Below are positions 3,601 through 31,647 of a stretch of DNA of 64,000 nt, one piece after another (within the stretch, counting starts at the first letter, position 1; every line of letters starts with the position of its first letter). A program made the translations under genes and the position numbers. The notes under the pieces were generated by a model. That model was not told the DNA's origin and made no database searches. It worked only from the letters and a program-made list of their open reading frames with translations. Source of the stretch: a virus (lineage: Duplodnaviria; Caudoviricetes); the IMG/VR virus record IMGVR_UViG_3300014205_006854, positions 7,269 through 71,268 of that record; one strand, given 5' to 3'.

Positions 3601-5114
3601 GATACATTAGTTGAAGGTGCAATTCCATCAAATTTATATTGTTTAGATTGAACAGGACTAATATTACCTTCAATATCTGCTGCAAAATACTCTAATGACC
3701 AATACCCATTATAAGGTAAAGTAAATGGCATATGATAATCTACAAATACGACAGTTTCTGTATAAATATGAGGATAATTATCATCTAATCCAAAAACAAT
3801 TAATGTTGCATCATTAGATTCTGGATCTAAAAATTTTATTTCAGATGTTGGTGAACTGGTTGCAGCAGTTGGAGATGTTAAAGTTATGAATCCATTACCT
3901 TGTTCACCTTGTTCATTTGTTTCTTCTGCAATTATAAAATCAAATGCATTATTAATTAAATTAACAATTTCTGAAATTGTTGTTTGTCCAGGAATTACAC
4001 CACGTAAATCAATAGTTCTAAATTGATCTTGATCTACCTGAATTGTCACATTATAATTTGATGTTAAATTAATTGGTGTGGATAAATCAACAGGTGATAT
4101 ATATTTAGCAGTAGTAACAACACCAGTCTCATGTAACTTATATTTAATATAGATTATTTCTGATTCGTCAGTTGATGATAGAGAGATTTCAGGAGCTATT
4201 CTATACCATCCATTATTCCCATCTATTAAATGATCTTCAGAAACATATACATTAGGTACTGTTGTATCTATCTTAATTTCAAATATTTCTGTTTCATCTT
4301 TATCTTCCCAATTACCTGCAAAATCTTTCGCATTAAATTTAATTTTGTATGAACCATTTTCAGCAAATGTTACTGAAGTTCCAGTTTTAGCATTAGCAGA
4401 TGTTCTTGGGTCATCAGGTACTGTTCCATCAGTAGTAAATGTGTAGTAAATATTTTCTACACCAGATACTAAATCAGAATAAAAGAATGTGATTGTTACT
4501 GGTTGTTTTTGAGTTCCTACTGGAAATTCAGCTTGTGAAGTTGGTGTACCTACATCAAATTTAAAAATTTTTGATTTTGTTTGTTCAACATTTCCAGCAC
4601 TATCAACAGCATAATAAAATAAAGTATGAATTCCTTCAGATGGTATAGAAAGATTAGTTGTAAATTGTGAAAATATACCTGAATCCCACTTATAAAAAAT
4701 ATCAACTACTGAAGTCATTCCAAAACTTTGAGCAGTTAAATTTATATCAAAAATATTTGTTACATACCAATCATTCAAACCATTTGGATTAGTTGAAGTA
4801 ATAGTAGTAACTGGTGCTACATTATTTAATTTTAATTCTTGTGTTTTTGTTAATTCTTTATTGCCATTATTATCAACTGAAAAATATTTTATTGTGTGAA
4901 TTGCTACACCAGATATTGGAAAAACAGTCGTTATTCCATCTGGCATATTTGGTCCAAAAAATGGTGATAATTCTGAAGGTTCAGTACCATCAAATGTATA
5001 ATAAGTTTTAATAGGAGCTGCAGAAGGATCAAATGTTGGTGTCAATTGCACAACAAAAGAATCGACTCTATTCCAACCGCTTGGTATATTGCTTATAGTA
5101 TTTGGAATACTCAT
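669..5114 (-). CDS. Large virion protein with ~8 Ig/Fn3-associated (chitobiase-C / OmpL47-like) beta-sandwich repeats
   Basis: Eight copies of a Y[FY]SxDxAGNxE-type motif, often preceded by YYTxDG and followed by DxxxPxT; lies between baseplate J and the fibre gene. Confidence 0.7.
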   Translation of the reverse strand: MSIPNTISNIPSGWNRVDSFVVQLTPTFDPSAAPIKTYYTFDGTEPSELSPFFGPNMPDGITTVFPISGVAIHTIKYFSVDNNGNKELTKTQELKLNNVAPVTTITSTNPNGLNDWYVTNIFDINLTAQSFGMTSVVDIFYKWDSGIFSQFTTNLSIPSEGIHTLFYYAVDSAGNVEQTKSKIFKFDVGTPTSQAEFPVGTQKQPVTITFFYSDLVSGVENIYYTFTTDGTVPDDPRTSANAKTGTSVTFAENGSYKIKFNAKDFAGNWEDKDETEIFEIKIDTTVPNVYVSEDHLIDGNNGWYRIAPEISLSSTDESEIIYIKYKLHETGVVTTAKYISPVDLSTPINLTSNYNVTIQVDQDQFRTIDLRGVIPGQTTISEIVNLINNAFDFIIAEETNEQGEQGNGFITLTSPTAATSSPTSEIKFLDPESNDATLIVFGLDDNYPHIYTETVVFVDYHMPFTLPYNGYWSLEYFAADIEGNISPVQSKQYKFDGIAPSTNVSEDLLPDGLPAAETPGIPVIGWYVNNNPKITFEYEDNVSGISKTYYQWNNVGTWNEYSPLVEIIIPSDGINTLTYYSVDNAGNIESFKYINYCKDNISPVTADNTLELQGIIFTTKGVGYQLESNENSTWVSYSQVKTYNKNVVSVLSIFDRDNIVSTDPLVYQEYYATQIQGADKDELEIYPVTRNENPETNNIWRDVAQQKLKLKNTPLLVDVGQIKVLKLLNKTNGFTYGVDPSISTPNDGWIKLSGPSFALTDVFEIDYVFDSVPLPQNHTLEVTYYFSYSHRDEALNTLERTILIPYYVPYIYDYTVQVILTGNDSESGLKQTFYTIDGTDPEIIIGPAPDYVITLLGTTQTGNVITLSETGSYKIKYFSIDNAGNQENVKTALYEIVIDKKIPSLNLTVDAPTGTNGWHKLPFKLYADIQSNDIIKRLGQKFLEVSNFKITVGENDKLDYKIGLTEFAITIDDGYYTTDELLTEIQTKLGGNFLVSKIQTPAQALVESGYRIKIENTSTAFDLLWSSGINASSSIGKEIFFNISSDDIGLLEYTSDYFGLKIDNSLGIAKHFIRSVESIYTSIGETYEFISRRKGYTQFYDEILVDGIISENEILCDYHHYIGIDKVNFSLDTVALDIVVPIRDDVSKFIGFDEIVHTTGLATGYIGSDIVTFDSGILPLNIENALLTFGTESVYVKERINATSLKIQGTLSLDHIDSTYILELNKIKFLVEFQGALSDFYMVNDAHIVYAKAYDFNSVQFSDVPQKQSGLIQLSFKLDLIAPVTTDTSIINPNFQKAPIYIQLNPVDVISGVSDTFYSIDGSYPSLRYQDLPNNRIELTVSGVFIIKYYSIDKAGNQETVKESNVIYSDAIAPETLISTDPSVPDGNNNWFKNYVPDVILTASDIESGIDKIYYKLPTDIDWNEHIIIDPLQSFVRFTLPYEGAINIQFYAIDKVGNTEIVKTGLVKYDHTPPVTQTNIP

Positions 5115-5117
5115 TTT

Positions 5118-8100
5118 TTATGCTTCCGTTATTGATGTAGCTACAACTATATTGCCTGGTACTAAATATTCTAAATTTTGGCATGGAATATTCTTTGCTC
5201 CAGATTCTCCATAAACAATATATGAAACTGAATATGTATGTGCATTTGGCTGATCACTATTTATCGTAGAAATAATTACTTCACCATTTTCAGAAATAAA
5301 TGCTTGTCCAGATGCAGAATCAACTTCATTTGCATCAGTCACAAAATTCAATTTTATATCATCTTCGTATACTGCATAAAATCCATTATCTGAATTACTT
5401 CCTAATGTTTTATAGATTAATGCATTTTGTCCTGTAGAATATGAATTAACAAAACTGGCTTGATATGGAATAAATTCTGAATTTATCTGTTCTCTGTTTA
5501 TTCTTGTATAATCTGCTTTTACCATTTTTGTTAATGGTAATAATACAGAACTTACTTTATCTACTTCCTCTATTGCATGTACAATATCACTTTGTGCAAG
5601 TTTATTACCAACTTTTAATTTTGAATGAACTTTAGATATTGCATCTTTTATATTTAATTTCACAGTTGTTTCATCAATTTCATTATCTAAAGATTCTAAA
5701 ACTACTGCTAATTCATAATCAACAAATGTTTTTAAAACTTCTTTTACTAAAACATCTGCAGCTATATGTGAATCCACATTAATCTTATCTTGTACTATTT
5801 TAACTAAAGGATTAGATGTATAAGTAATAGTTAAAATTTCACCATAAGAATAATCAACAGTTACAGTTGAACCATTTGGAATTGATGATGTAACTGATCT
5901 AGAAATTGATACATTTTTTTCATTTTCTTTTTTAATCAAATAATCAGAATTTACAAAATATATAGTAGAACCATTTCTAATTACAATAGATTCAGTATCA
6001 ATTCCTTTGTTACTTAATTCTTTAAATTCATTATCAATTAAAGTAACATTTTCTGTAAAATCAAAAACATTTCCATTTGGAATACCATTATCATAAAGTA
6101 TTTGGATACTTCGTTGTGCTTTTACTGAATTTCCTTCTAACAAAATATCATCAATATTATTAAATTTATAATTAACATTTTCTTGTAATAATCCACTATC
6201 ACTACCTTCCACAGATAAAATTGTATCTGCTGGCTGATTTTGTAAAATTATAGGACTACTATCATGATATCTGTAAGTTGATGTAACTATATCACTAGTA
6301 GATAATCCAATTGAATCATTTATGATATTATTTTTATCGATAATAAAAGAAATTCCATCATCTTCTATCCATAAACTTTGTAAAATATTATCATTTAATA
6401 AATTGGCATCAACTTCACCACCTGCAGCATTTGATATTACTATTTCTGGTGTATTGAAAATTTTTATTGTATAATCATATGTAGCTGATAATTTATTACC
6501 AGATACTAAAGGATTTGTTAATTGAATGAATCCATTCAACAAATTAATAGTATAATCTACATTTTCAACTAAAATAATGTCATTTTTATAAATTGTATAT
6601 GATTTTTTAACGATCATTTGATGATCTAATGATGCAGATACTTCACCGCCAAGTGCAGCATTAATTATTATTTCATTAAGTACATTTTCTCTATAATCAT
6701 ATTTTGCAGTAATAACATCACCAGTAATTAAAGGTTCTACAAATGATATTAATCCTGTTGATAAATCCAATTTTACTTGTGATTGTTTTAACATTGCAAT
6801 ATTGTTTTTATAAATAATCCAATTTCCTAATAAATCATAAATTTTACCTTTAGAAACATTCGTAACATTTTCTACGTTAAAAATGTTTTTTGTTGCAGAA
6901 ACATCAGTGCTAACAGACTTAAAAGTAAATCCATCAATATCAAATACATCTACAGGATCATCAATTTTTTGATTAAATAAAAATCCAATAAAATCTTGAT
7001 ATTGTGTTTGAGTTCCACCCATAATATATACATCAACTTTTCCAAAAACATGTTTTTGTCTTACTTCATCATAATCACGTTGCATTAATTTATTACCAGC
7101 TGTTACTACTATAGCATCTAATACATTAGGCGTTTCTGCTGCTGTTCGTTTATATCCATAAGCAGTACCAACATCTAAACCAACTAAAGCATATTGTGCT
7201 CTATCAGCTAATGAAGAATTTGATTCTCTGTCTGTTCCACCTAATGCTGCTAATAAATTTGTAACATTTAAACCTGAAACAGGTGAACTTATAACAGTTC
7301 CTGCACCAACATTTCCAATACTTCCAGGATCTATTGCTTGTGTTTCAACACTAATTTCATATCTATTTCGTAATGCATTAAAATATTTACTTAACTGATT
7401 AACATCTAATGTTACTTCTGCTAAAGTTTCAAATACAACTGATTGAGTTAATTCTGTAGGAATAGTACTTGGTCTAGTTCCTTTCAAAATAGTTATACTT
7501 TTTGTTGGTGCAATATCAGTCCAAAATGTTGATGTTACAGTTGAATTGGTTTCTTCTTTTCTAAATATTCCATAATTTGCAGCTAATTGATCAAATTTAA
7601 AATCAATCATTGCTTGTAAATCTTCATCAGTATCTATAAAAAATGCTTCTTTTAATTGTAATTTATAAGTTGAATCTGCTACTGGATCAGAAATATTATC
7701 ACCATCAGCATCATCCAATTTTCTTAATGTTAAAAATGATTGTGATCTAGATATAAAATCTTCTCTAATATATGAATATGAAATTTCATGTGCATTAGGA
7801 TCTATATGTAATTGTCTGGTAACAGATCCAGGTTTAACATCTAATTTTGGTTCACGATCTAAAAGTTCAGTTATATAATCTAGAGAAATATCATTTTCAG
7901 ATCTAACTGTTGAACTTAAAATATTAGTTGGAATAAGTAATGGGGTAGCTGTTACTTCTATAGAATATGCACTTTCTTCGCCTAAATTATCAACTGCTGT
8001 AATAACATAATATTGAGGTTTATCTTCAAGAAGATTTTGATGTACATACAAATAAATATATACGGTTGAATATGTTTCTTCTATAACAGTAGTTTTATGA

Positions 8101-15974: not shown

Positions 15975-18900
15975 TTAAATTAATAAATCATCTATATAAT
16001 CTATTTGTACTTGATTCGCTGCTATCAACTGATTATTCTGATCTATCTCATTATACTTATTTCCAATTTTAACATATGAACCTGTTCTCTTATTCAAACG
16101 TTGTTGTACTGGTGGAATTCTTGATTCATATAATGTATCAGTTAATTCAGTATTAATTAAATAATTTTCTCTTGCTTCAATCTCAATAATTCTACTATCT
16201 ATTTTACTATCTCTACCAGAAAATATTGTTTGTCTAGTATTAATTTCAGAATAATTTATAGTTGAATAATTTATAGTAACATTTCCTTTATCTGTTCTCC
16301 ATGCTCTTTTAGCTTCATATACTACTGGATCTAAAATTTCTTCATTACCAAAATTAGGCATTGTAATAACTTCACAATCAATAATCTCATTAGAAGTATC
16401 ATTTTCATCATTATCTTCAAATCCTAATTTATTTTTAGCTGTACAACTTAAAACTTTTATACTTGAATCTACACCTTCATTTGTACTATATAATTTTAAA
16501 TGATTTGTAGATGCATCAGCAACATAAGCAATAACTGAATCTATTTTAGTTTTAACTTCTAATGGAGTAACAAACTTATTATTAACAAAATCTCCAGTAC
16601 CAGCTGTAGCAATTGCACCTTCACCACTTGTCAATTTTAAATTTTCTGCAGTAGTATCAGTTCCCGATGTAGATACTAAAACAGAAGAACCTGTACCTTG
16701 TGTTCCTGATGTCAATACATACTTCAAACCATTATGTACACAAGTAAATCCCAAAAACGCAGCTCTTAATTTAATATCTGTAGGTGCTTGTTTTCTAACC
16801 TCTAATTGAATCTTTTCTGCAATTTCTTCACTTGTCAATTGCATACCTATTTCTATAGGATAAGATGTACTTCCATTCAAACTTATCAAAATTTCAGATG
16901 TTGCAGATAATAATCTTGTAAACGGTCTAGTTCCAGATTCTAATGTTCCAACTGTACAAGCAAAAACAACAGAATACTGATCAACAACATCTACTTCTAA
17001 TAATAGCTCATCATCATTTTCTAACATATAATAATTAGGTATTCTACTCATCAACATTGCTCTAGATACGTTTGCAATATAATGCTCATTAACATTAATA
17101 AGTGCAAGTAAATCAGGTATTGTCATTGTTCCATTTAACACTATATCCATATCTTTTCTATTTCCAGTAGACCAATATAAATATGCTGTTAAATTAGTAT
17201 TTGTTTTAGTCAATCTACAAGATGTTACATCATGACCATTTTCTTGTGTCTGTGTATCAAACTTTAAAATAGGTGCAGCATTTCTAGTTTTAACTTTTCC
17301 ATCACTAACAAATGATAATGCATTCATTTTATCTAAAGCAAAAAATCCTAAAACATTACAAATAGAATTAGAACTAGAAGGTCCGGAAGCAAATAACAAA
17401 TTACTCAACACAGGAAAAGAAATTGTCATTTTATCAGTGATAGAATTAAAAGATACTGTAATTACCGGCAAACTTGGTAAAATAGCTTCATTCATTCTTG
17501 TTTGTATTTCTGTTGCTAAATCAGTTCCATTATAAAATCCAGGAGTAATTATAGCTGTGTATATCGTGGAATCAGCAACTTCTTTAAAATCTATACCATC
17601 ATTCACACCAGATTCTATCTTAATTGTTTTATCTGAAACAAAAACTGAAGAACCACTACCAACTGTTCCTGAAACTATTCTCAACATGTTAGTAAAATTT
17701 TGCCATACTGCAGATTCATTATAAGTACATAACACATCAGAATAAATCAAATTCAATTTAGTCTGAATTTCTAATGCAATAGCATTTCCTGCATAAGTAT
17801 TTTGTGTAATAACAATAGGTTCTTGTGAATCATCACCATCAATATCAACTTTCAATAAATCTTTTCCATCATCACCATAATTAGTTCCTAAAGCAAATCC
17901 TAATATTGTTCTTGCACTACCTCCAGTAATCTGTATAGATGCTATTGATCCGGTAAGCACAGATGTCATTTTTAAATAACCAGAATTATTAAGAAAAGTC
18001 ATTCCTGTAAAACCACTAGTAAATAGAGTAACTAACTCATTTACTGTTACAACATCTATATTTCCTACATTTCCAGTTCCATCACTTGTAGTGGTTGCAG
18101 AAAAACCAATCATTACTAAAAAATCATCATTAATTCCTTGATGAACACCAATTGATGATGTATTACCTCTTCTAAATACAGAAAACTTAAATGCATCAGA
18201 TACAGTATATTCAACTAATGCATTTGAAGGTGAAAAAGTAGAATTAATTATTGATTGTAATTGACTAACTATTTGTGCTGCTGTATATCTTCCTTGTGGA
18301 AATGTCAATATTCCTGAAATAACAGAATTAACTTCTAATGAAAATTTATCATTAACATTTGTTACTACTACAAAAATACAATCATTTTCAGATGTATAAC
18401 TCAATGAACCTGTCTTATCAGTAGTATCATTAAATCCTATTGTATATGCAACTGATTTTGATTTATTAACACCAGAATTAAATAATAGTGAAAAATCAGA
18501 TAAATAAGATGTTATAGTAAATCTATTCGGCACTGTACCGTAATTAACTATATAATCCGTTTGAGTAATATCTAATTGATTATTAATTTCTGTAGCTAAT
18601 CCTTGACCACTGTAATTTCCAGGAGTAAGAATTATTGTATTATTAGATGTACCATCATAATAATCTAAATGATCATTAACACCTGCTTTTATTACAAATC
18701 TTGACGTTATTGTACTACCTTGTATTGGATTAGCTACTGTTGCAGTAAAAGTAACTGATTGTTCTACTAAACTATTTACTTTTAATTTTAAATCATCATT
18801 AGGTTCTAAATTAAATGGTGACAAAATAGTATTTTGATAAACAGCTGGTAAATCGCCAGGTATAACATAATTTCCAGCATTTGCTGCAGAATATGTATAA

Positions 18901-21900
18901 CCTTCTGTTCCTACTCTACTATTAGTCACTGAAATAGCAGGTAATTTTTCAGGAATAAAATTCACAATTTGTTGATATAAACCTGATGGAGAATAACTTC
19001 CTGCTATATGTTTACTTGTACCAAATCTTACTAATGGAATTGGATTATTGTAAATTTTATTTGTTGCTAAAGCATCTAAAATTAATACTTCTGATCCTGC
19101 ATTAGTAAAACTAGAAAATGCTTGTGATTTCAATTGTAAACTTAATAATCCATTATCTCTTAAATATCTCAAATTATTTAAATTGGTTAATACACCAAAA
19201 GCACCATTTAATTCTTCTTCTATTTCATCTAATGGATTTTGTGGTGCAGTACCAACATCATCTTTATGATTTGAAAAAGCACCTCTTTGATTTAAAAGTG
19301 CTATTTGTTCTTGTTCACATTTTGCTATTTCTTTAAGTATTAATTCTTTCCAAGCGACTAGAAAAACTTCATTATCATATAAAACTAAATTTTCAATATT
19401 TGTAATATATTCTTCATCATTTACTAAATACGATTTTTCTAAAAGTTTTGCTGAAAATTCATCAACTGATTTATTTACTTTTAAAGGTTCACCATAAAAT
19501 TCTGGTGTAGCAGATAATGTAGGTCTCCATGCAGGATTAAAATAATCGGAATTAGAAAAATCTACTTGTCTATCTGAATAAATGTAATTTAAAAAATCTG
19601 TATCTGTTGTTTGATTAAATCCAATATAATACAAAATAGAATTTATAGAATCTTTCCCTGATACTGTTAATAATTTAAATGTCTGTGCACAACTAAATTC
19701 GAATTTTTTCCATCTTGATTTAAATATTACACTATATGTTCTTCCTAATTGAGATGTAGAATTCATAGCATCAGCAATTGCATCAGCTAACTCACCAGTA
19801 ACATATTCTCCATAATCTATACTGGCAATAACTTCTACATTTGATGTTTCACAAAAACTTAATTTACAATTAGAGCTATCTATCTTTATTTTACCATTAG
19901 GATAAAGTCTTGGCCATCCTCTTGAACCATAATCATAAATTAATGTGGATGGAACATTATAGCTTTGCCACAATGAATTAATATTAATTCCTGATTCCCT
20001 TAATAATAAAAATGAATAACAAATTCTATTTCCATCAATTATATTAGAAATTGATAATCCTTCAGTTATTAAATAATTTGTTAATGCTTGTACTGTAGGA
20101 TAATATTGTTCTTTTCCTTTTTCTTCTTGAGGAGGATTAAATCCTAATAATGTTCTTACATCTCTATTAGAATCTGATGCAGCTAATACTTCAACTTCTG
20201 AATTTAAACCATATGTACCTGAATAAATACAAAAAACTTGTTCTCTACTAAAATATTCACAAGTTGAATCAGTAAATCCTGCTAATCTTAATTGTGCTTG
20301 AATAGATTTTGCTACATCTTTTCCATTATTTATTCCTGAACAAAATAATGGTCCAACTTTAGTTGTACCTAAATATCCTAAATGTATACCACTACCACTC
20401 CACTGCGTACCATAATCATCATTATTTTCTCCTAAACTTGTATCTATCTCACATTTTCTAAAATCACCAATCTTTATTTCTGCAGTAGTGTCATCAATTT
20501 TAACATTCAATAAATTATTAGCATATTTACCATCAATTTCAAATGGAATATCAAATCCCATATCATTTGCTAAATCTGTTGAATTATCAATTGAAACTGT
20601 TGAATTAGGTCCACCAGTTCCTGAAAATACAGTAAATACTAACAATTGTGAATTAAATAAAATTCCACATTCTCTGAATCCACTTTCACGTAATATTAAA
20701 TGTGTTGAAAATCCCAATCTTAAATTCAAAGTATTATTTGTAACTTGAAATTTATTAAATGTATCTTTCAAAGATATTTTTATTCTTGTATCATCTTCTA
20801 CAGATTCAATATCAATTCCATTAATAGGATCTAAAACTGAAATAACTTCACTAATAGATAACATACCATTAACGTCTTCATTAAATCCAATGGTTGATAA
20901 AGGTGTGCCACTAACTTCTAATAATTGAAAATTATAATAACCAATAACATCACATTCTATAGTAATATTTCCGTCTATTGTTGGCAATGCATTTAATCCT
21001 ATTGAAGAAATAGAAATATTTAATTTATCACATAATTCTTGAGCTGTAAAAACCATTACTGGATTTATAGTAACAACATCAGGAGAAAACCCTAAAATTA
21101 AATTAGGAGATTTAAAACCATCAAAAATTTGAAAATAATGTGTTCCACCTTGTTGATTATGTGTTATTCTTATTCTACCACTTTCAACTACAGATTCAGG
21201 ATCAGGATCTTTATCAACAACTTCAGCTGTTACTCCAATCCAATCTCTATTTAAAACTGCAACTACTTCTTCTGGTGTTGCTGCACTCATATCAACAAAA
21301 TCTTCTTTATGAAATGTTGCTGTTTGTTGTTGTTGTCCATCTACTGATAATAACAAAGTAGATTCTTCACGCAAATTATAAATTGGCAAAGTATTTTCAG
21401 TATAAGCATATTCTTCAGAAATAAAAGAAACTGTTATTGTATTTGTTTCATTTTTAATGAACTGAATCGAATCACCATCTCTTAAACTAAATGATTCTGC
21501 ATTTTCTGATATGATTGACGTTTTAGTAGCCTTACTAAATACTTTTGTTGTAACTACATTATCAATAGTTATTTTAAAAGATTCACCTTCTAAAATACCA
21601 TAAGGTGGTTCTAAAGTATTTATCGTTTCAAGTATATCTATATTGTTTAAAATCCCTTGTATAGTACTTGCTAAAGTTTCACCAGCTAATGTTTGAGGTA
21701 ATGTTATCAATTCAGATAATTTTATTTCTTGAGTTTCATTATTTATTGTCAATTTAAAATTTTCATTAGTTAAATCAACATCAAAAATATTTGTTAATAA
21801 TACTTTTGATGTTGATGATCCATGACGGTCTCTTGACCATATATCAAAATTAGTTCCGCAAGGTGTACTTAATGAATATCCTCTAAATGGAACAATTGGT

Positions 21901-22244
21901 ACATCTAAATATTCAGCACCATTATGTTCTATTCTAAATCTTCCATCATAAATTTTTAAAGTTGAATTAGCTGCAGGATCTGAAATTGTAAAACAATCTT
22001 CTTGTAATGGCTGTTGTAATGATAATCCAGTTAAATATTTTAATTCTCGTTCAAATTCATAAATATCTTCGTGAACTTGATCTACTTGTTTTTTGAATGG
22101 AAGATCTTTTAAAATTAGTTTATTTATTGATGTTAAAGCTGTAGTATTAGATTCTTCAAGTTGAGAGTTTTGTTCAACTAATTCTTCTTTTGTATCTTCT
22201 AAAACATTTTCATCTCTTTGAATAAGCGGAATTATAAAAGACAT
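15975..22244 (-). CDS. Giant (2089 aa) putative tail/baseplate-associated protein with internal beta-rich repeats
   Basis: Repeated ...S(G)TxGxxSxVxV segments (e.g. IYSGTYGLNSEVEV, IVSGTVGSGSSVFV, LTSGTQGTGSSVLV); coiled-coil termini; position in baseplate cluster. Confidence 0.6.
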   Translation of the reverse strand: MSFIIPLIQRDENVLEDTKEELVEQNSQLEESNTTALTSINKLILKDLPFKKQVDQVHEDIYEFERELKYLTGLSLQQPLQEDCFTISDPAANSTLKIYDGRFRIEHNGAEYLDVPIVPFRGYSLSTPCGTNFDIWSRDRHGSSTSKVLLTNIFDVDLTNENFKLTINNETQEIKLSELITLPQTLAGETLASTIQGILNNIDILETINTLEPPYGILEGESFKITIDNVVTTKVFSKATKTSIISENAESFSLRDGDSIQFIKNETNTITVSFISEEYAYTENTLPIYNLREESTLLLSVDGQQQQTATFHKEDFVDMSAATPEEVVAVLNRDWIGVTAEVVDKDPDPESVVESGRIRITHNQQGGTHYFQIFDGFKSPNLILGFSPDVVTINPVMVFTAQELCDKLNISISSIGLNALPTIDGNITIECDVIGYYNFQLLEVSGTPLSTIGFNEDVNGMLSISEVISVLDPINGIDIESVEDDTRIKISLKDTFNKFQVTNNTLNLRLGFSTHLILRESGFRECGILFNSQLLVFTVFSGTGGPNSTVSIDNSTDLANDMGFDIPFEIDGKYANNLLNVKIDDTTAEIKIGDFRKCEIDTSLGENNDDYGTQWSGSGIHLGYLGTTKVGPLFCSGINNGKDVAKSIQAQLRLAGFTDSTCEYFSREQVFCIYSGTYGLNSEVEVLAASDSNRDVRTLLGFNPPQEEKGKEQYYPTVQALTNYLITEGLSISNIIDGNRICYSFLLLRESGININSLWQSYNVPSTLIYDYGSRGWPRLYPNGKIKIDSSNCKLSFCETSNVEVIASIDYGEYVTGELADAIADAMNSTSQLGRTYSVIFKSRWKKFEFSCAQTFKLLTVSGKDSINSILYYIGFNQTTDTDFLNYIYSDRQVDFSNSDYFNPAWRPTLSATPEFYGEPLKVNKSVDEFSAKLLEKSYLVNDEEYITNIENLVLYDNEVFLVAWKELILKEIAKCEQEQIALLNQRGAFSNHKDDVGTAPQNPLDEIEEELNGAFGVLTNLNNLRYLRDNGLLSLQLKSQAFSSFTNAGSEVLILDALATNKIYNNPIPLVRFGTSKHIAGSYSPSGLYQQIVNFIPEKLPAISVTNSRVGTEGYTYSAANAGNYVIPGDLPAVYQNTILSPFNLEPNDDLKLKVNSLVEQSVTFTATVANPIQGSTITSRFVIKAGVNDHLDYYDGTSNNTIILTPGNYSGQGLATEINNQLDITQTDYIVNYGTVPNRFTITSYLSDFSLLFNSGVNKSKSVAYTIGFNDTTDKTGSLSYTSENDCIFVVVTNVNDKFSLEVNSVISGILTFPQGRYTAAQIVSQLQSIINSTFSPSNALVEYTVSDAFKFSVFRRGNTSSIGVHQGINDDFLVMIGFSATTTSDGTGNVGNIDVVTVNELVTLFTSGFTGMTFLNNSGYLKMTSVLTGSIASIQITGGSARTILGFALGTNYGDDGKDLLKVDIDGDDSQEPIVITQNTYAGNAIALEIQTKLNLIYSDVLCTYNESAVWQNFTNMLRIVSGTVGSGSSVFVSDKTIKIESGVNDGIDFKEVADSTIYTAIITPGFYNGTDLATEIQTRMNEAILPSLPVITVSFNSITDKMTISFPVLSNLLFASGPSSSNSICNVLGFFALDKMNALSFVSDGKVKTRNAAPILKFDTQTQENGHDVTSCRLTKTNTNLTAYLYWSTGNRKDMDIVLNGTMTIPDLLALINVNEHYIANVSRAMLMSRIPNYYMLENDDELLLEVDVVDQYSVVFACTVGTLESGTRPFTRLLSATSEILISLNGSTSYPIEIGMQLTSEEIAEKIQLEVRKQAPTDIKLRAAFLGFTCVHNGLKYVLTSGTQGTGSSVLVSTSGTDTTAENLKLTSGEGAIATAGTGDFVNNKFVTPLEVKTKIDSVIAYVADASTNHLKLYSTNEGVDSSIKVLSCTAKNKLGFEDNDENDTSNEIIDCEVITMPNFGNEEILDPVVYEAKRAWRTDKGNVTINYSTINYSEINTRQTIFSGRDSKIDSRIIEIEARENYLINTELTDTLYESRIPPVQQRLNKRTGSYVKIGNKYNEIDQNNQLIAANQVQIDYIDDLLI

Positions 22245-22399
22245 TACAATGTACTCCCTCTATCAAATTTCAAAGTACTATTAGCTGCTTTCAAATGTGC
22301 TTCTTCAATTGAATTTATCAATTTAGTAATTTGTAAATTTATCTTTTTAGATAAACTTTCAAAATCAACTTCTTTAGTTTCTTCTTGTTTCAAAATCAT
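22244..22399 (-). CDS. Small 51-aa protein (MILKQEETKEVDFES...), not in the ORF track
   Basis: ATGA overlap with the endonuclease stop and TAATG overlap with the 2089-aa start; contains the GAGGGAG RBS of the next gene. Confidence 0.7.
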   Translation of the reverse strand: MILKQEETKEVDFESLSKKINLQITKLINSIEEAHLKAANSTLKFDRGSTL

Positions 22400-23646
22400 A
22401 TTAATTTCCCCGTTTCTACGCCAGCCACAGGTATTGCATTATCACTATATTGAACTAACGTTTTTACTTCATATTTTTGAAGTTCTTTAGCTGTTTGAAT
22501 TTTTGTACCAAAAATCTTAAGAGGTTCTATTAATTCGTCTTTTGCAAAAATCTTAAAATTGAAAGTTGGATTTTGTTCAGAAACTAATTTATGTTTTAAT
22601 AAATCTTTTTCTCGAACATAACCTTTTGTATCTATATAAGTATTCCAATCTTCAACATAAAAATCTGGAAAATAAGTATGTTTAACATTATTATTATCAA
22701 CATACTTAAAAAACTCAATATTTCCATGTGTTCTAAACTTCATCTTTTTAGAAGTTAACCATGCTGCAAAACGAATTTCATAACTACCTTGAAAACGTTG
22801 ACCATTATACTCATAAAGTTTTATTGGTCCAAACTTTGTTTTAAGTGCTTTATGCAATTTTAAATGTTGTGTTTCTTTTGCTGTTCTTATTTTAATACCT
22901 AATCTTTCTAATATTTTTCTAACTATTATTCTTTTCAAAGAATAAGTTTTTGCTATAAATATATGATGTAAAACTTTTTCAGTATAATCATACACAATTT
23001 TATCACATAGCGATAAATTTTGAATAATTTCATTAATTTGGTTAGATTCTTTAATTCGTTTATTCAACATTCTAGAACTTTTATTATTTCTTAAAATATG
23101 ATTCTGTTTAAGAATAGCACATACAGTTCTTTTCGAAATTCCCATTTTTATTGCAATCGTTTTGTATGAATCACCGCTATTTTTATATGAATCAATTATT
23201 TTTTCTATTTCTACATCACTAACATAATTTCTAAATTTCTTTCTGAAATTAGTCTTTTGTTTTGAAGGATGCTGCAAATGCCAAGTTTCTCCAGATGTAC
23301 GTTTATAAAATTTAAAATGTTCAAAAAGAATTTGATTTACAATTTCAACTTTCAAAAAATATTTTTGAGCTATAACTTTTATATTTGTAAACTTTTCATA
23401 TTCACATTTTACTTGATTCAATAAATCATAATTTTTAAAAATAATGTTAAATTTATTCGTTTCTTTATCTTTTAATCTTAATTTCCATCTTTTAATTCCT
23501 TGTTCATATTGTTCAGCTTTACGTAAAATATCTAAAATAGTTGGTCTACTAACATTATATTTTAATTCTAATAAATGTACAGATATATTACTTGTTTTAT
23601 ATTCTGCTATTATTTTTAATTTAAGATCTTCACTTATTTTTTTCAT
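22396..23646 (-). CDS. Free-standing putative homing endonuclease (HTH repeats plus TnsA-N-like PD-(D/E)XK domain)
   Basis: FQGSYEIRFA...TYFPDFYV...YIDTKG catalytic pattern; several N-terminal HTH-like repeats; Lys-rich. Confidence 0.8.
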   Translation of the reverse strand: MKKISEDLKLKIIAEYKTSNISVHLLELKYNVSRPTILDILRKAEQYEQGIKRWKLRLKDKETNKFNIIFKNYDLLNQVKCEYEKFTNIKVIAQKYFLKVEIVNQILFEHFKFYKRTSGETWHLQHPSKQKTNFRKKFRNYVSDVEIEKIIDSYKNSGDSYKTIAIKMGISKRTVCAILKQNHILRNNKSSRMLNKRIKESNQINEIIQNLSLCDKIVYDYTEKVLHHIFIAKTYSLKRIIVRKILERLGIKIRTAKETQHLKLHKALKTKFGPIKLYEYNGQRFQGSYEIRFAAWLTSKKMKFRTHGNIEFFKYVDNNNVKHTYFPDFYVEDWNTYIDTKGYVREKDLLKHKLVSEQNPTFNFKIFAKDELIEPLKIFGTKIQTAKELQKYEVKTLVQYSDNAIPVAGVETGKLI

Positions 23647-24248
23647 AATAAACGACCAATTTCTACACCAGCTACAGGAATTGGCCCAAGTAAAGGAGGA
23701 GCTGGCACCCCAACAATTACTGTATTTACTATTGCTGTTGACATTGATAATGCAATTCCATCACCTATAGCCATTGCTGTTGATAATGTTTGTGCACCTG
23801 TAAATCCACTAGCTGAAAGCATTTGAAAAATTGAAGCACCTAAAGTAGCTCCTACTATTCCTACAATAGGTCCTGTTCCTGAACCAATAGCTGTCGGTCC
23901 ACCAGCAGAAGTAACTATACCCATTAAAGTAATATGTTCAGCAAATGCAGATCCTATAGCCATTGCAGTAGTTAATGTTTGTGCACCTGTAAATCCTTTA
24001 GCAACCATCATCGTATAAATATTTTGTCCAACTATCGGTCCTACTAATCCAACTACTTTACCAGTACCAATTCCAGGTCCAGGTCCTGTTCCAAATGTGC
24101 TACCATTGTATATATTCATCGCTAAAATATTAGTGATTATTCCATTACCTAATGCCATTGAAAATGTTACTGTCTGTGCACCTGTAAATCCACTAGTAGC
24201 AAATTTTGCAGCTATCTGTGCACCTAATATTGGACCGGCAATCGGCAT
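23643..24248 (-). CDS. Gly/Ala-rich protein with three internal repeats; candidate spike-tip protein
   Basis: Three GFTGAQT units (identical 17-bp DNA TGTGCACCTGTAAATCC at 23791, 23980, 24175); AGGAG RBS. Confidence 0.5.
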   Translation of the reverse strand: MPIAGPILGAQIAAKFATSGFTGAQTVTFSMALGNGIITNILAMNIYNGSTFGTGPGPGIGTGKVVGLVGPIVGQNIYTMMVAKGFTGAQTLTTAMAIGSAFAEHITLMGIVTSAGGPTAIGSGTGPIVGIVGATLGASIFQMLSASGFTGAQTLSTAMAIGDGIALSMSTAIVNTVIVGVPAPPLLGPIPVAGVEIGRLL

Positions 24249-28075: not shown

Positions 28076-28156
28076 GTTATTCCTTCGTGGAATTTATTCT
28101 TTTAGCTTACATCTTTTCTAATCTAGTTTTTATTTGTTAAATTTATATTGATGCTT

Positions 28157-29416
28157 TCACAGATTTTGTAAAATCTTTTTAATTATATTTTTATTAACTT
28201 TATAATTGAATGATAATTTTGATGCAGAAGTTCCATTTTCATATTCGGTTATTATTTGTTTTGCATATTTTTGACTAAAATCTTTGAAAAAATAAATTGC
28301 TCGTTGTTGTTGATTAGCCCGCTGTTTTATATTTAATTTGTTAAATATATTTTTAAAATTTTTTAATTTATATTTTTGTCGTAATTCTTTAAATCCAAAC
28401 CCATTTTCAAGATAATCTAGTTTTATTTTATCGCCAATTTGTGTAATCAAATGTTGTAATTCTAGTTCTTTATATTCTTTTGAATTTCTCAATGGTAAAT
28501 ATTTGTTATAAATAAATGAAATTAAATCTTTTCTAATATTATATTTTTTTGCTATTAAATTTAAATTAATTTTATTTACTGCATAATCTATTTTTAAATC
28601 ATTGATATTTATTCTATTTAGAATTTCTTGTAAAATTAAATTATCTGTTTTATGTTCATATAAATATTTTTCTATATTGATATTAAGTTTTTTGTCTATT
28701 TCTAAAATTTCTAATTTATTAAGTTCATTTTTCGTTAATATTGTTAATTTTAAGTCTTTGTACTTATTTTTAACAATTTCTATTTTTCTTTTGTCTTCAT
28801 TCGAGAAAAAACCTTTTATTTCTACAAATTCATCTGTATTTATTAAATAAAAATCTGGACAATAAGTTCTCAATTTATTATTATCATCAAAATATTCAAA
28901 CCTTTTAATTTTTTTATGACATAAAAATTGAATATTTTTAGATTCTAAATATAAGGCGTATTTAAATTCCCAGCTTCCTTGATATTTAATATCTTTATAA
29001 TAATACCAATTAACATTTCCACCACACTTTTGTGTTTTTCCATAACGATGTCCTTTTATACCTAAACTTTGCTTTATACTTTCAGTTTCACGCCGAGCTT
29101 CTTTATTTGTTTTTATTTTAATATTATGAAATTTTAAAATTTTAGAAATTATACATCTGTTTATTTCATATAATCTAGATAAACTTCTAAGATTTCCTCC
29201 GCAGGTTTTATAATCATCACAAATTTTTAATGCTAATGGTGAAGACATTATTTCATCTGAATAACCTTTTCCTAATCCAGAAATTTTTTCAGAAGTAACA
29301 ATATCAAATTTCTTTTTATATTCTGTATATGTTATCGAATGTAATTTTACATGCCGTGGCATTCCAATAGATGATAATTTCTTGTTGCAAATTTTACAAA
29401 AAGTTATTTTACTCAT
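28157..29416 (-). CDS. Free-standing putative homing endonuclease (Zn-finger/HTH plus TnsA-N-like PD-(D/E)XK domain)
   Basis: CKIC...H..LH N-terminus; YQGSWEFKYA...TYCPDFYL...FVEIKG; TAATG-coupled to the spike gene. Confidence 0.8.
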   Translation of the reverse strand: MSKITFCKICNKKLSSIGMPRHVKLHSITYTEYKKKFDIVTSEKISGLGKGYSDEIMSSPLALKICDDYKTCGGNLRSLSRLYEINRCIISKILKFHNIKIKTNKEARRETESIKQSLGIKGHRYGKTQKCGGNVNWYYYKDIKYQGSWEFKYALYLESKNIQFLCHKKIKRFEYFDDNNKLRTYCPDFYLINTDEFVEIKGFFSNEDKRKIEIVKNKYKDLKLTILTKNELNKLEILEIDKKLNINIEKYLYEHKTDNLILQEILNRININDLKIDYAVNKINLNLIAKKYNIRKDLISFIYNKYLPLRNSKEYKELELQHLITQIGDKIKLDYLENGFGFKELRQKYKLKNFKNIFNKLNIKQRANQQQRAIYFFKDFSQKYAKQIITEYENGTSASKLSFNYKVNKNIIKKILQNL

Positions 29417-31647
29417 TATATTGACGCCTTAACTGACTTGCTACCTAAAAGTGGTAATCCGCATAAATAATCCAAGTGGCTTATTCCAGGTCCTGGCATT
29501 CCAGTTACTACGCCTCCTTGTGCTGGAATACTTCCTAATGATACCATTGGTGCTGATACCTCTGCTTTTGTACCTGAACTTAAAGTTGCTTTTACTAAAC
29601 CACTTACTTTAACAGTTTGTGATACTGCATTTATTTCTATTTTTCCAGCTTTTGTTTTTACAGTAATATTTCCAGCAGTGATATCAGCAGTATAATTTCC
29701 TGTTTTAATTGATAATTTTTTATTTCCGGTAGTAATAGATTCTGTGATATTTCCTGTGGTAACATTTGTCTTTTTATTTCCAGTTGTTATTGATTCTTCT
29801 ATTCCACCAGTTGTTACAGTTGTCTTTTTACTTCCAGTTGTGATTGTTTCTTTTATGCTTCCAACTTTAATAGAAGTTGTTTTTCCGCCTGTTACTATAG
29901 TTTCTTTTATATTGCCAGTTGTTATTAATAATTTTCTATCACCTAAAACAATTGTTTCTTCAATGTTGCCTGCAGTTAACGTAGATGTTAAATCACCTAA
30001 TGTTAATGTTGTTTTTCTACTTCCTAACATTAGTAATTCTGTTTTTGATCCTAAAACTATTTTAAGAGCATCAACAGTAGACATTGGTGTATTTGGAATT
30101 GGTGTTGATAATCCTGTAATTGTTGTATCTCTACTACCACCAATTTTTTCTTGTTTGTCTTTTATAACAATTTCTTTATATGAAGAACCATACACACTAT
30201 TGATGTCATTGATATAATTTTGAACTTTGACACCTAAAATATCTTCTTGAATTTTTCCAGCGACTGTTATTAAATATGAACCAGTTACATTAACATTAAA
30301 ATCGCCATTAATATCATAAACTACGTTGCCGTTAGTTTTTAATGATTTAGATATTTTATTTTCATCACTTCCAAGAATATCAGTATAGATAGATTTTTTT
30401 GCTATTGTTGTTTTGCTTCTATTAAATGCATCAACACCTAAAGTTTCTCTAGTACCACCGGTTGTAATTAAATCTATAGAAGTTTGATCTTTGCCACTTG
30501 CACCTACTGCCCATTTAACTAATCCATCAAAATTCGCTTCCCAAGATCTACCTGCACCTAAAGGAGCTTGTCCGGTTGAAGCTGCGATATTAGTAAATAA
30601 ATGGCCTTGTTTATCTATATCTATTTTTGTTCCTGATTTCCAAAATTTTAATTGTAATGCTGATGCCAATGATTCATATTCTTCTGGTAAACATTCCATA
30701 TCATCAACATTTGCTTGTGCTGAATCTGAAGATCCAAAAATTTGTGGTCTTAAAATTTTTCCATAATGTGTTAAATCAGTTTTATTTGAAGGAATGTTTG
30801 TACCTAAAACGAATGAAATATATGGACTTTTAAAAGTTACATCTTTTCCTGAATTTATTTCAGAAACTGGTAATTTTCCATCAGTTTTTTCAGTAATATC
30901 TATTCTATATTCATTATAAGCTTTTCCACCTTTTCCTACTGGTTTTTGTGAATCAGTAAAAATTTGAACTATTTTTCCATTAGATAAAAATGATGGTTGC
31001 AAAGTGTCAGTACCACCTGGTACAGGTTCTCTTGTAATCATTCCGTTGTAAATTCTTGAACCAGTAGTTTGTTGATAATATTGAACTGATGATAAACGAA
31101 TTGATTGATCAGCAGAAACTATTTCTATTTCATTAAGTTTATTATTTGATAAATAAACATTATCATCTAAATATAATTCTGAACCTTGCGTTGATTCAGC
31201 TTGAATTTCACCTGGATATATTTTTTTTCTTTTAGAACGAACTGAATTGTAGCCAATTTTATCTTTTATTGTTTTTATATCTTCAAGAGTATTTGCTGCT
31301 TTGCCTCTTGAAAGTCTATATTCAAGTAGTTGTTCAAGATTTGCTTCAATATATCCTAAAACAATTGGATCAGCTGTTGTTTGAGTTTGTCTGATCCATC
31401 CGCAAACAGCAATTGAACCTTCTTCTGGCATCCCTTTTAAACTTCCTCTTGGAGATGCCATCGCAGAATTTAATTTTATTTGTACACGTAAACCAACATC
31501 ATCAACCCATACTAAATCAACTAATCCTGATTCATAATCAACCCTGTCAACGAATCCTAAACGTAGATATTGCAGATCATTTTCATATCTACCATGCCAT
31601 GGTTTTTCTTTAGATTTTAAATTTCTACCGTATCCTTCTACACTCAT
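29416..31647 (-). CDS. Baseplate central spike protein (gp5/gpV/VgrG-like)
   Basis: N-terminal OB-fold pattern (GFVDRVD...KGMPEEGSIAVCGW); C-terminal beta-helix with 9-residue G-spaced repeats; apex HLDYLCGLP. Confidence 0.8.
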   Translation of the reverse strand: MSVEGYGRNLKSKEKPWHGRYENDLQYLRLGFVDRVDYESGLVDLVWVDDVGLRVQIKLNSAMASPRGSLKGMPEEGSIAVCGWIRQTQTTADPIVLGYIEANLEQLLEYRLSRGKAANTLEDIKTIKDKIGYNSVRSKRKKIYPGEIQAESTQGSELYLDDNVYLSNNKLNEIEIVSADQSIRLSSVQYYQQTTGSRIYNGMITREPVPGGTDTLQPSFLSNGKIVQIFTDSQKPVGKGGKAYNEYRIDITEKTDGKLPVSEINSGKDVTFKSPYISFVLGTNIPSNKTDLTHYGKILRPQIFGSSDSAQANVDDMECLPEEYESLASALQLKFWKSGTKIDIDKQGHLFTNIAASTGQAPLGAGRSWEANFDGLVKWAVGASGKDQTSIDLITTGGTRETLGVDAFNRSKTTIAKKSIYTDILGSDENKISKSLKTNGNVVYDINGDFNVNVTGSYLITVAGKIQEDILGVKVQNYINDINSVYGSSYKEIVIKDKQEKIGGSRDTTITGLSTPIPNTPMSTVDALKIVLGSKTELLMLGSRKTTLTLGDLTSTLTAGNIEETIVLGDRKLLITTGNIKETIVTGGKTTSIKVGSIKETITTGSKKTTVTTGGIEESITTGNKKTNVTTGNITESITTGNKKLSIKTGNYTADITAGNITVKTKAGKIEINAVSQTVKVSGLVKATLSSGTKAEVSAPMVSLGSIPAQGGVVTGMPGPGISHLDYLCGLPLLGSKSVKASI

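Follow-up and report, generated by a model that had tools for sequence, protein, structure and literature searches.

How does a nuclease gene come to end in a near copy of the last codons of the gene that precedes it? This question is raised by a locus in a tailed phage (Duplodnaviria; Caudoviricetes), which we analyzed in a stretch of 64,000 nucleotides (nt), hereafter the window (positions 7,269 to 71,268 of the IMG/VR virus record IMGVR_UViG_3300014205_006854, a genome of 71,268 bp). In this locus, a gene encoding a protein of 201 amino acids (aa), hereafter the host gene, is followed by an open reading frame (ORF) for a 416-aa nuclease, by a 51-aa ORF, and by a large structural gene (Table 1). 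The host gene ends in the codons ATT CCT GTA GCT GGT GTA GAA ATT GGT CGT TTA TTA TGA, and the nuclease ORF ends in ATA CCT GTG GCT GGC GTA GAA ACG GGG AAA TTA ATA TGA. The two tails are identical at 9 of 12 residues and at 29 of 39 nt, with four codons differing only synonymously and three altering the residue (I/T, R/K, and L/I), and a repeat search reports them as a direct repeat of 41 nt (22396-22436 and 23643-23683; 76% identical) at a spacing of 1247 nt. The original prediction, which was made from the letters of this stretch, had described the match of 9 of 12 residues with many synonymous codon changes and had noted that each tail ends in an ATGA, the first starting the nuclease ORF and the second the 51-aa ORF; all of its coordinates and sequences were reproduced here. 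The likely explanation, in our view, is invasion of a conserved structural gene, the host gene, at its 3' end by a free-standing homing endonuclease cassette; the evidence for this reading and the explanations that compete with it are set out below.

One competing explanation is that a similarity of 12 residues arose by chance in an AT-rich genome, and the tail match taken on its own is indeed weak (tblastn E = 0.85). We compared all 8911 pairs of C-terminal 12-mers from the 134 ORFs of at least 50 aa in the genome and found that these adjacent tails are the sole pair with nine identities; the next-best pair has seven and joins spurious ORFs. Moreover, both copies can be aligned to a nuclease-free relative, L005, which is collinear with the window on either side, and the same layout occurs again in two further relatives, L012 and L013. 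Chance is thereby refuted, and we assign it practically no weight. The tail duplication is certain because of the collinearity with L005, and not from the 12-residue match alone.

L005 is one of 25 related loci or contigs that we examined, and it encodes the closest relative of the host protein (P0001, 93% identical). At the DNA level, positions 1-786 of L005 align to window positions 24451-23660 (92% identity) and positions 763-1242 align to 22436-21955 (93% identity), with the 24 nt at 763-786 aligning to both tail copies. Since these two alignments flank the nuclease segment, L005 corresponds to the window minus about 1247 nt. The host gene of L005 ends in IPVAGIETGKLI and its stop codon, leads directly into a 50-aa ORF (800-952) through the same ATGA, and is then followed by the big gene. 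This is the arrangement that the original prediction had expected of a nuclease-free relative, namely the downstream version of the tail followed by the small ORF. The 51-aa ORF itself is absent from L001, the closest relative at 79%.

Comparison with L005 also reveals which of the two copies is native. In the first 18 nt of the site, L005 agrees with the upstream (working) copy at 15 positions and with the downstream (displaced) copy at 12; in the last 21 nt, it agrees with the working copy at 14 and with the displaced copy at 20. The mismatches are thus reciprocal between the copies, and the native end is the displaced downstream copy, in agreement with the earlier proposal that the original terminus had been pushed aside. 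By this alignment, the resident site consists of the left half of the upstream copy and the right half of the downstream copy, and the insertion point is placed about seven codons (12 at most) before the host stop codon. It follows from the reciprocal mismatches that the insert comprises a new tail (GTA GAA ATT GGT CGT TTA TTA TGA; 7-8 codons, in which Lys AAA has become Arg CGT), the nuclease gene, and a recoded left half-site (ATA CCT GTG GCT GGC GTA). Scored in bins of 40 nt, identity to L005 falls to 0.75 and 0.88 in two successive bins upstream of the junction and to 0.82 just downstream, against 0.90-1.00 in most of the remaining bins; the stretches are short, and other divergent patches exist (0.62 at L005 324-363). 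Short conversion tracts flanking a break close to the center of the duplication would account for the divergence at the junction, and because the stretches are short we regard this as suggestive only. The patch at L005 324-363 spans 40 nt (L005 324-363 against window positions ~23890-23930; 62% identity) in a loop region, NIYNGSTFGTGPGPGIG, of a host gene that is otherwise 92-100% identical, and looks like a separate mosaic or hypervariable patch.

We next consider the remaining relatives, in all of which the host gene is syntenic between a 743-aa spike-like gene and the 2089-aa gene; the latter is itself syntenic in L001, L004, L006, L009-L013, and L016-L019. The nuclease is present sporadically at this one site: it occupies the window, the P0019 locus, L012, and L013, is decayed in L010 and L019, and is missing from L005. 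P0019 is a 376-aa nuclease whose full length aligns to the window nuclease at 40% identity, as read at the protein level. In three contigs it overlaps by 4 nt the 201-aa host gene (P0012) that precedes it, and a 60-nt spacer lies after it; P0012 ends in GRLL and is the sole other close host homologue to do so. In L012, the host tail SIGIDTGRLV and its stop codon are followed by a 368-aa nuclease, then by an orphan ..VGIDTGKLV with its stop codon outside any ORF, and then by the big gene. The nuclease in L012 is 42% identical to a second nuclease encoded in the window (see below) and 28% identical to the first, and 9 of the 11 aligned codons of the two tail copies of L012 differ (stop counted). 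The order in L013 is spike gene, a 446-aa nuclease, a 206-aa host gene ending in GRII and stop, a 356-aa nuclease (P0022), an out-of-frame IDGKVL with its stop codon, and the big gene. L019, a relative of L013, retains the GRII end and stop. Of its nuclease, only the last ~40 nt remain, along with an old tail that is damaged, and alignment of the L019 spacer to L013 begins at position 4992. L010 carries a 48-aa C-terminal nuclease remnant and a remnant of the old tail (..SGKIL and stop), with a working tail ending in GKIV. In L014 (1421-1561), a different ORF (MTNVNFVHIDEDSF...) begins in an ATGA overlap with the host stop codon, and the contig ends there.

These layouts bear on two further points of the original prediction. 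It had proposed that the old tail was absorbed in frame by the nuclease, which is the case in the window; L012 has its old tail beyond the stop codon of the nuclease, and L013 has it out of frame, so this part of the claim does not extend to the other lineages. Likewise, the proposed coupling through ATGA is limited to one nuclease lineage (the window and P0019), and the nucleases of L012 and L013 start after AGGAG-like sites of their own. The prediction would have fallen had relatives without the endonuclease carried both copies of the tail. We found a single tail in all nine nuclease-free relatives with known context, and remnants of both copies without a full nuclease occur only in L010 and L019, each of which has a visibly decayed nuclease.

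The tail sequences separate the occupied from the empty loci. Each of the nine empty loci (L005; L001-L003 counted as one; L004 and L015 counted as one; L006; L009; L011; L016; L017; and L018) has one tail, with a Gly-Lys core encoded by GGN AAR. A working tail with Gly-Arg (GGK CGW) is found at all four nuclease-occupied loci (window, P0012/P0019, L012, and L013) and at the decayed locus L019, and at none of the nine empty ones. The displaced tails are Gly-Lys wherever they are visible (window, L012, L013, and L010), and in L012 and L013, too, the displaced copy is the one closer to uninvaded relatives at the residue level. CGN accounts for 18% of the Arg codons in the genome and AGA for 79%, and the occupied tails nonetheless use CGN. 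We take the new tail to belong to the mobile unit on the basis of these comparisons, whether its Arg codon is an immunizing change or an inherited mark of the cassette. As for codon usage more broadly, four codons of the displaced tail are rare genome-wide (GTG 6%, GGC 5%, ACG 3%, and GGG 2%), and the working tail is made of common codons, CGT excepted. The GGG AAA of the displaced tail is also found in the empty allele L005, and may serve the 51-aa ORF as a weak ribosome-binding site.

The tail is conserved at the nucleotide level across the clade, and gene content varies between the spike gene and the big gene among the relatives. The conserved gene end could therefore be a recombination linker for modular exchange, with the nuclease being cargo that was swapped in rather than the cause, and PMC10448857 reports nuclease genes at genetic-exchange boundaries between phages. 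We find this quite unlikely, since two copies of the tail would not result from simple homologous exchange, and since the extra copy is found solely beyond a nuclease gene or what remains of one, and not around any other cargo. Moreover, the same pattern recurs at an unrelated gene end in a second cassette of the window.

This second cassette follows the 743-aa spike-like gene. Its nuclease (419 aa; 29416..28157, minus strand) is 32% identical to the first (tblastn E = 1.5e-19). The heptapeptide KSVKASI with its stop codon occurs at 29439..29416 and again at 28166..28143; the coding sequences show five differences, all synonymous, and the second of these copies overlaps the stop codon of the 419-aa nuclease out of frame. 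In L001, a 36-aa ORF after the spike-like gene (L001:3436-3546) matches the N-terminus of the second nuclease (Cys-x2-Cys ... His), and DNA homology between L001 and the window ends ~70 nt into this ORF, which looks like a decayed copy of the second nuclease at the same site. Further nucleases of the family lie between the spike-like gene and the host gene in L013 (1955-3295; 446 aa) and in L019 (1439-3010; 523 aa); like the window, L013 carries a nuclease at each of the two sites.

What kind of enzyme does the first cassette encode? Pfam places HTH_23 at residues 150-181 and Phage_endo_I (PF05367) at residues 283-411 of the nuclease, and PHROG endonuclease families match the ORF as well. A profile built from three sequences matches four T7 endonuclease I structures (E = 1.6e-8 to 9e-6), aligning ..YFPDFYV....YIDTKG of the nuclease to ..YTPDFLL...FVETKG of T7 endonuclease I, with D328, D339, and K341 aligned. 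A word-indexed search with the nuclease found one relative only (P0019), and the family was seen by exhaustive search, which returned 879 representatives at E <=1e-3 that have the core in common and varied N-termini. Six residues (E290, P327, D328, F329, K341, and K351) are invariant in a 25-member alignment of this family. The AlphaFold2 (AF2) model of the 416-aa protein has a predicted local distance difference test score (pLDDT) of 83. A Foldseek search with the whole model gave weak rows only (the I-Bth0305I catalytic domain, probability 0.96, and T7 endonuclease I chains), and because of this weakness we base the nuclease assignment on the sequence evidence. By alignment and model, the ORF encodes a nuclease with intact catalytic residues and, in addition, a DNA-binding part, with the predicted helix-turn-helix (HTH) modules of the N-terminal region taken to be the portion that recognizes DNA.

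The Pfam alignment extends to residue 411 and could suggest that the tail is part of the nuclease fold. We ruled this out: P0019 ends at the equivalent of window residue 399, none of the 879 family representatives aligns past about residue 405, and residues 397-416 are predicted to be disordered (pLDDT <50). For these reasons, we regard the final 17-20 residues as foreign to the enzyme. The linker that precedes the old tail contains, exactly within its limits and in the +2 frame, three successive stop codons (TAG TGA TAA; 22447..22439, minus strand). They might mark a former nuclease stop prior to a change of frame, and could equally be due to chance, as off-frame stops are frequent in AT-rich DNA.

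Table 1. Features of the invaded locus and of the second cassette, in window coordinates.
Feature	Position	Strand	Remarks
201-aa host gene, glycine-rich	24248..23643	minus	ends in IPVAGVEIGRLL and stop
Working (replacement) host 3' end, IPVAGVEIGRLL and stop	23643..23681	minus	terminal ATGA starts the nuclease ORF
Inserted segment relative to the empty allele, ~1247 nt	22420..23666	minus	boundaries good to roughly 10 nt
416-aa nuclease ORF (probable homing endonuclease)	23646..22396	minus	ends in IPVAGVETGKLI and stop
Four predicted HTH modules, residues about 6-248	22903..23631	minus	AF2 helices 6-43, 73-110, 131-181, 211-248
PD-(D/E)XK nuclease core, residues 277-373	22528..22818	minus	E290, P327-D328, D339, K341; pLDDT >90
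Linker YSDNA, five codons	22435..22449	minus	separates the last nuclease-homologous residues from the old tail
Displaced original host 3' end, IPVAGVETGKLI and stop	22396..22434	minus	in-frame nuclease C-terminus; retains the original ATGA overlap with the 51-aa ORF
51-aa ORF	22399..22244	minus	ATGA overlap with the nuclease ORF; stop codon and 2089-aa gene start overlap (TAATG)
2089-aa downstream structural gene	22244..15975	minus	would provide the right-hand homology for homing
Second cassette, same nuclease family	28143..29439	minus	follows the 743-aa spike-like gene

The host protein suggests why an element at this site would bring a replacement end. It has no relative in a single-protein scan of IMG/VR and no tblastn match among 50,697 deposited phage genomes, the latter pointing to an uncultured lineage. 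Its homologues, 17 in public metagenomes (46-93% identity; about 196-206 aa), end in G-K-(L/I/V/M)-x in 16 of 17 cases. P191, G194, and G198 are invariant in the family, and all three are retained in the full-length 201-aa protein of the window. The AF2 model (pLDDT 87.8; predicted template modelling score 0.82) consists of three helix-helix-hairpin (beta-hairpin) repeats, in which tail residues 193-200 are the last beta strand and complete the third repeat. Because the tail is conserved and forms the final strand of the model, its truncation would probably destroy the host protein, and the upstream copy, as read from the sequence, completes the host reading frame as a replacement end. The model has no clear fold match in the PDB (Foldseek E 0.3 or worse), and its best VIA-align score (Z 6.1, to membrane transporters) is within the noise for helical models; the protein may be a membrane-active tip protein beside the spike.

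We propose the following mechanism. The cassette (~1247 nt) consists of the replacement host end, the nuclease gene starting at the ATGA, and the recoded left half of the target. The enzyme would recognize the conserved end of uninterrupted alleles, around GGN GTA GAA ACN GGN AAA, through its four HTH modules and would cut it with its T7-endonuclease-I-type PD-(D/E)XK core. The break would then be repaired from an occupied genome during mixed infection, with the gene body serving as the left homology and the old tail and downstream genes as the right homology, and repair would copy the new tail and the nuclease gene into the empty allele. Occupied genomes would be immune, as their working copy is recoded (AAA to CGN, with neighboring changes) and their old copy lacks the native left half. 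The old end was pushed downstream, where in the window it is read, via the five-residue linker, as a disordered 12-residue appendix of the nuclease. Supplying a replacement end lets the element sit inside a conserved gene without splicing. Two additional ideas are offered as hypotheses only: with the nuclease ending at the original ATGA, termination-reinitiation at the 51-aa ORF may be retained, and, with the old tail captured in frame, the successive overlaps (ATGA, ATGA, TAATG) may continue to function.

What the comparisons and the model show is the insertion, the duplicate, the identity of the native copy, the presence or absence among relatives, the stages of decay, and the nuclease fold with intact catalytic residues. 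Several points weigh against invasion by a homing cassette. Cleavage, the exact target, the cut position, immunity through the Lys-to-Arg change, and the coupling are all steps that we infer. L005, a contig of 1242 nt, could be a secondary deletion between the repeats rather than an allele that was never invaded, which is conceivable because such a deletion would yield the same chimeric tail. The Lys-to-Arg change does not occur in every invasion, as L010 has a nuclease remnant and a Gly-Lys working tail. The Gly-Arg tails of L012, L013, and L019 may share ancestry, and because these loci are related there are about three independent contrasts rather than five. A scan for promoters and terminators found promoter-like sites to be no commoner than in shuffled sequence. 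The PF05367 match is borderline, its score of 29.8 bits being only just above the cut-off of 29.1, and T7 endonuclease I is itself a junction resolvase and not a site-specific enzyme.

The last of these points suggests another origin for the locus, in which the nuclease is an ordinary DNA-processing enzyme, or a domesticated or dead one, of the T7 endonuclease I resolvase type that arrived by a single illegitimate recombination, the duplicate being a scar without present homing or immunity. In its favor, the core of the nuclease most resembles that of a resolvase, the intact ORF is linked in translation to structural genes, and homing cleavage is a step proposed from the sequence. We nonetheless judge this origin unlikely. 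T7 endonuclease I (PF05367; PDB 1fzr, 1m0d, 2pfj, and 3cae) has a homologous catalytic core, with PD...(D/E)xK aligned and the acidic and lysine residues conserved, but it is a structure-specific junction resolvase of 149 aa without an extra DNA-binding domain. The window nuclease, at 416 aa, departs from this single-domain architecture in its four predicted N-terminal HTH modules of ~250 residues, and it behaves as a mobile gene. Genomes that are 92-93% identical differ in whether they carry it, at least two diverged nuclease lineages sit at the same site, each with its own duplicate, decayed copies exist, two paralogues occupy different gene ends in one genome, and the working tails are consistently recoded.

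A homing cassette that supplies its own gene end has precedents outside phages. The original prediction had pointed to organellar endonucleases of this kind, and these correspond to the mORFs of fungal mitochondria, described in Glomus sp. atp6, atp9, cox2, and nad3 (PMC3630166) and, as cited there, in Allomyces macrogynus atp6 (ref. 48 of PMC3630166). As in the window, the endonuclease ORF of an mORF travels with a foreign C-terminal coding part of the host gene, and the native C-terminus lies downstream and is closer to uninvaded relatives than the inserted one; the ORF is in some cases in phase with the host gene (PMC3630166). The differences are that mORFs reside in organelle genomes rather than in a tailed phage, encode LAGLIDADG or GIY-YIG nucleases rather than a T7-endonuclease-I-type PD-(D/E)XK core with HTH modules, and have duplicates of tens to hundreds of nt, whereas the duplicate in the window has only 12 codons. 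Moreover, the window nuclease has an ORF of its own that starts from the ATGA overlap, and it is this nuclease, and not the host protein, that carries the old tail as a fusion.

The WHO elements at FBA1 in Torulaspora and Lachancea yeasts, like the proposed window cassette, home into a conserved gene whose 3' end is replaced at each integration, require no splicing, and have former gene ends and decayed nuclease genes on their downstream side (Coughlan et al. 2020, PMC7282813). WHO proteins are intein-like, carry zinc fingers, are related to HO, and belong to nuclear yeast genomes, whereas the window nuclease is of a different family. In addition, allele-specific cleavage has been demonstrated experimentally for WHO (PMC7282813) and is a putative step for the window nuclease. 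Our Pfam and PDB searches returned only the PD-(D/E)XK core and HTH domains for the window nuclease, and nothing of LAGLIDADG, GIY-YIG, or WHO/HO type. Because the nuclease family differs, the window element appears to work like mORFs and WHO elements without being a member of either by descent.

Among phages, the closest comparison is with the intronless homing of the free-standing Seg and Mob endonucleases in T4-like phages (review PMC2988022). These are likewise free-standing nuclease genes between or within conserved phage genes that occur sporadically among relatives, and the window element would spread as they do, through repair of breaks and co-conversion of flanks during mixed infection. 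Seg and Mob insertions are intergenic or split genes (mobE in nrdA, mobA in the topoisomerase gene, and seg in gene 43), and their nucleases are GIY-YIG or HNH enzymes, unlike the window core (PMC2988022). This T4-centered review of phage mobile elements describes no duplicated gene ends, and no published phage with a duplicated or replaced gene end beside a homing endonuclease emerged from our literature searches, which were incomplete in coverage.

Free-standing homing endonucleases of phages are usually described between genes or splitting genes, and a self-supplied gene end would explain how such an element enters a conserved coding sequence without an intron, an intein, or a split protein. 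A single clade here offers an unusually complete series, with the empty site, two diverged nuclease lineages, three states of the displaced tail, and two stages of decay. The candidate target is very small, about 20-40 nt, and the candidate immunity change is a single codon. We tentatively extend this to a broader statement, which we think somewhat more likely to prove wrong than right: that widespread HTH-array nucleases of the T7 endonuclease I type home in uncultured phages by regular, splicing-free replacement of gene ends, that immunity in the present case is largely a single swap of Lys AAA for Arg CGN, and that capture of the old tail keeps downstream coupling through the original ATGA. 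For genome annotation, the last 17 residues of the nuclease, and orphan mini-ORFs after such genes, are leftovers of a neighboring gene, and short duplicated gene ends may be used as a search signature for mobile nuclease cassettes.

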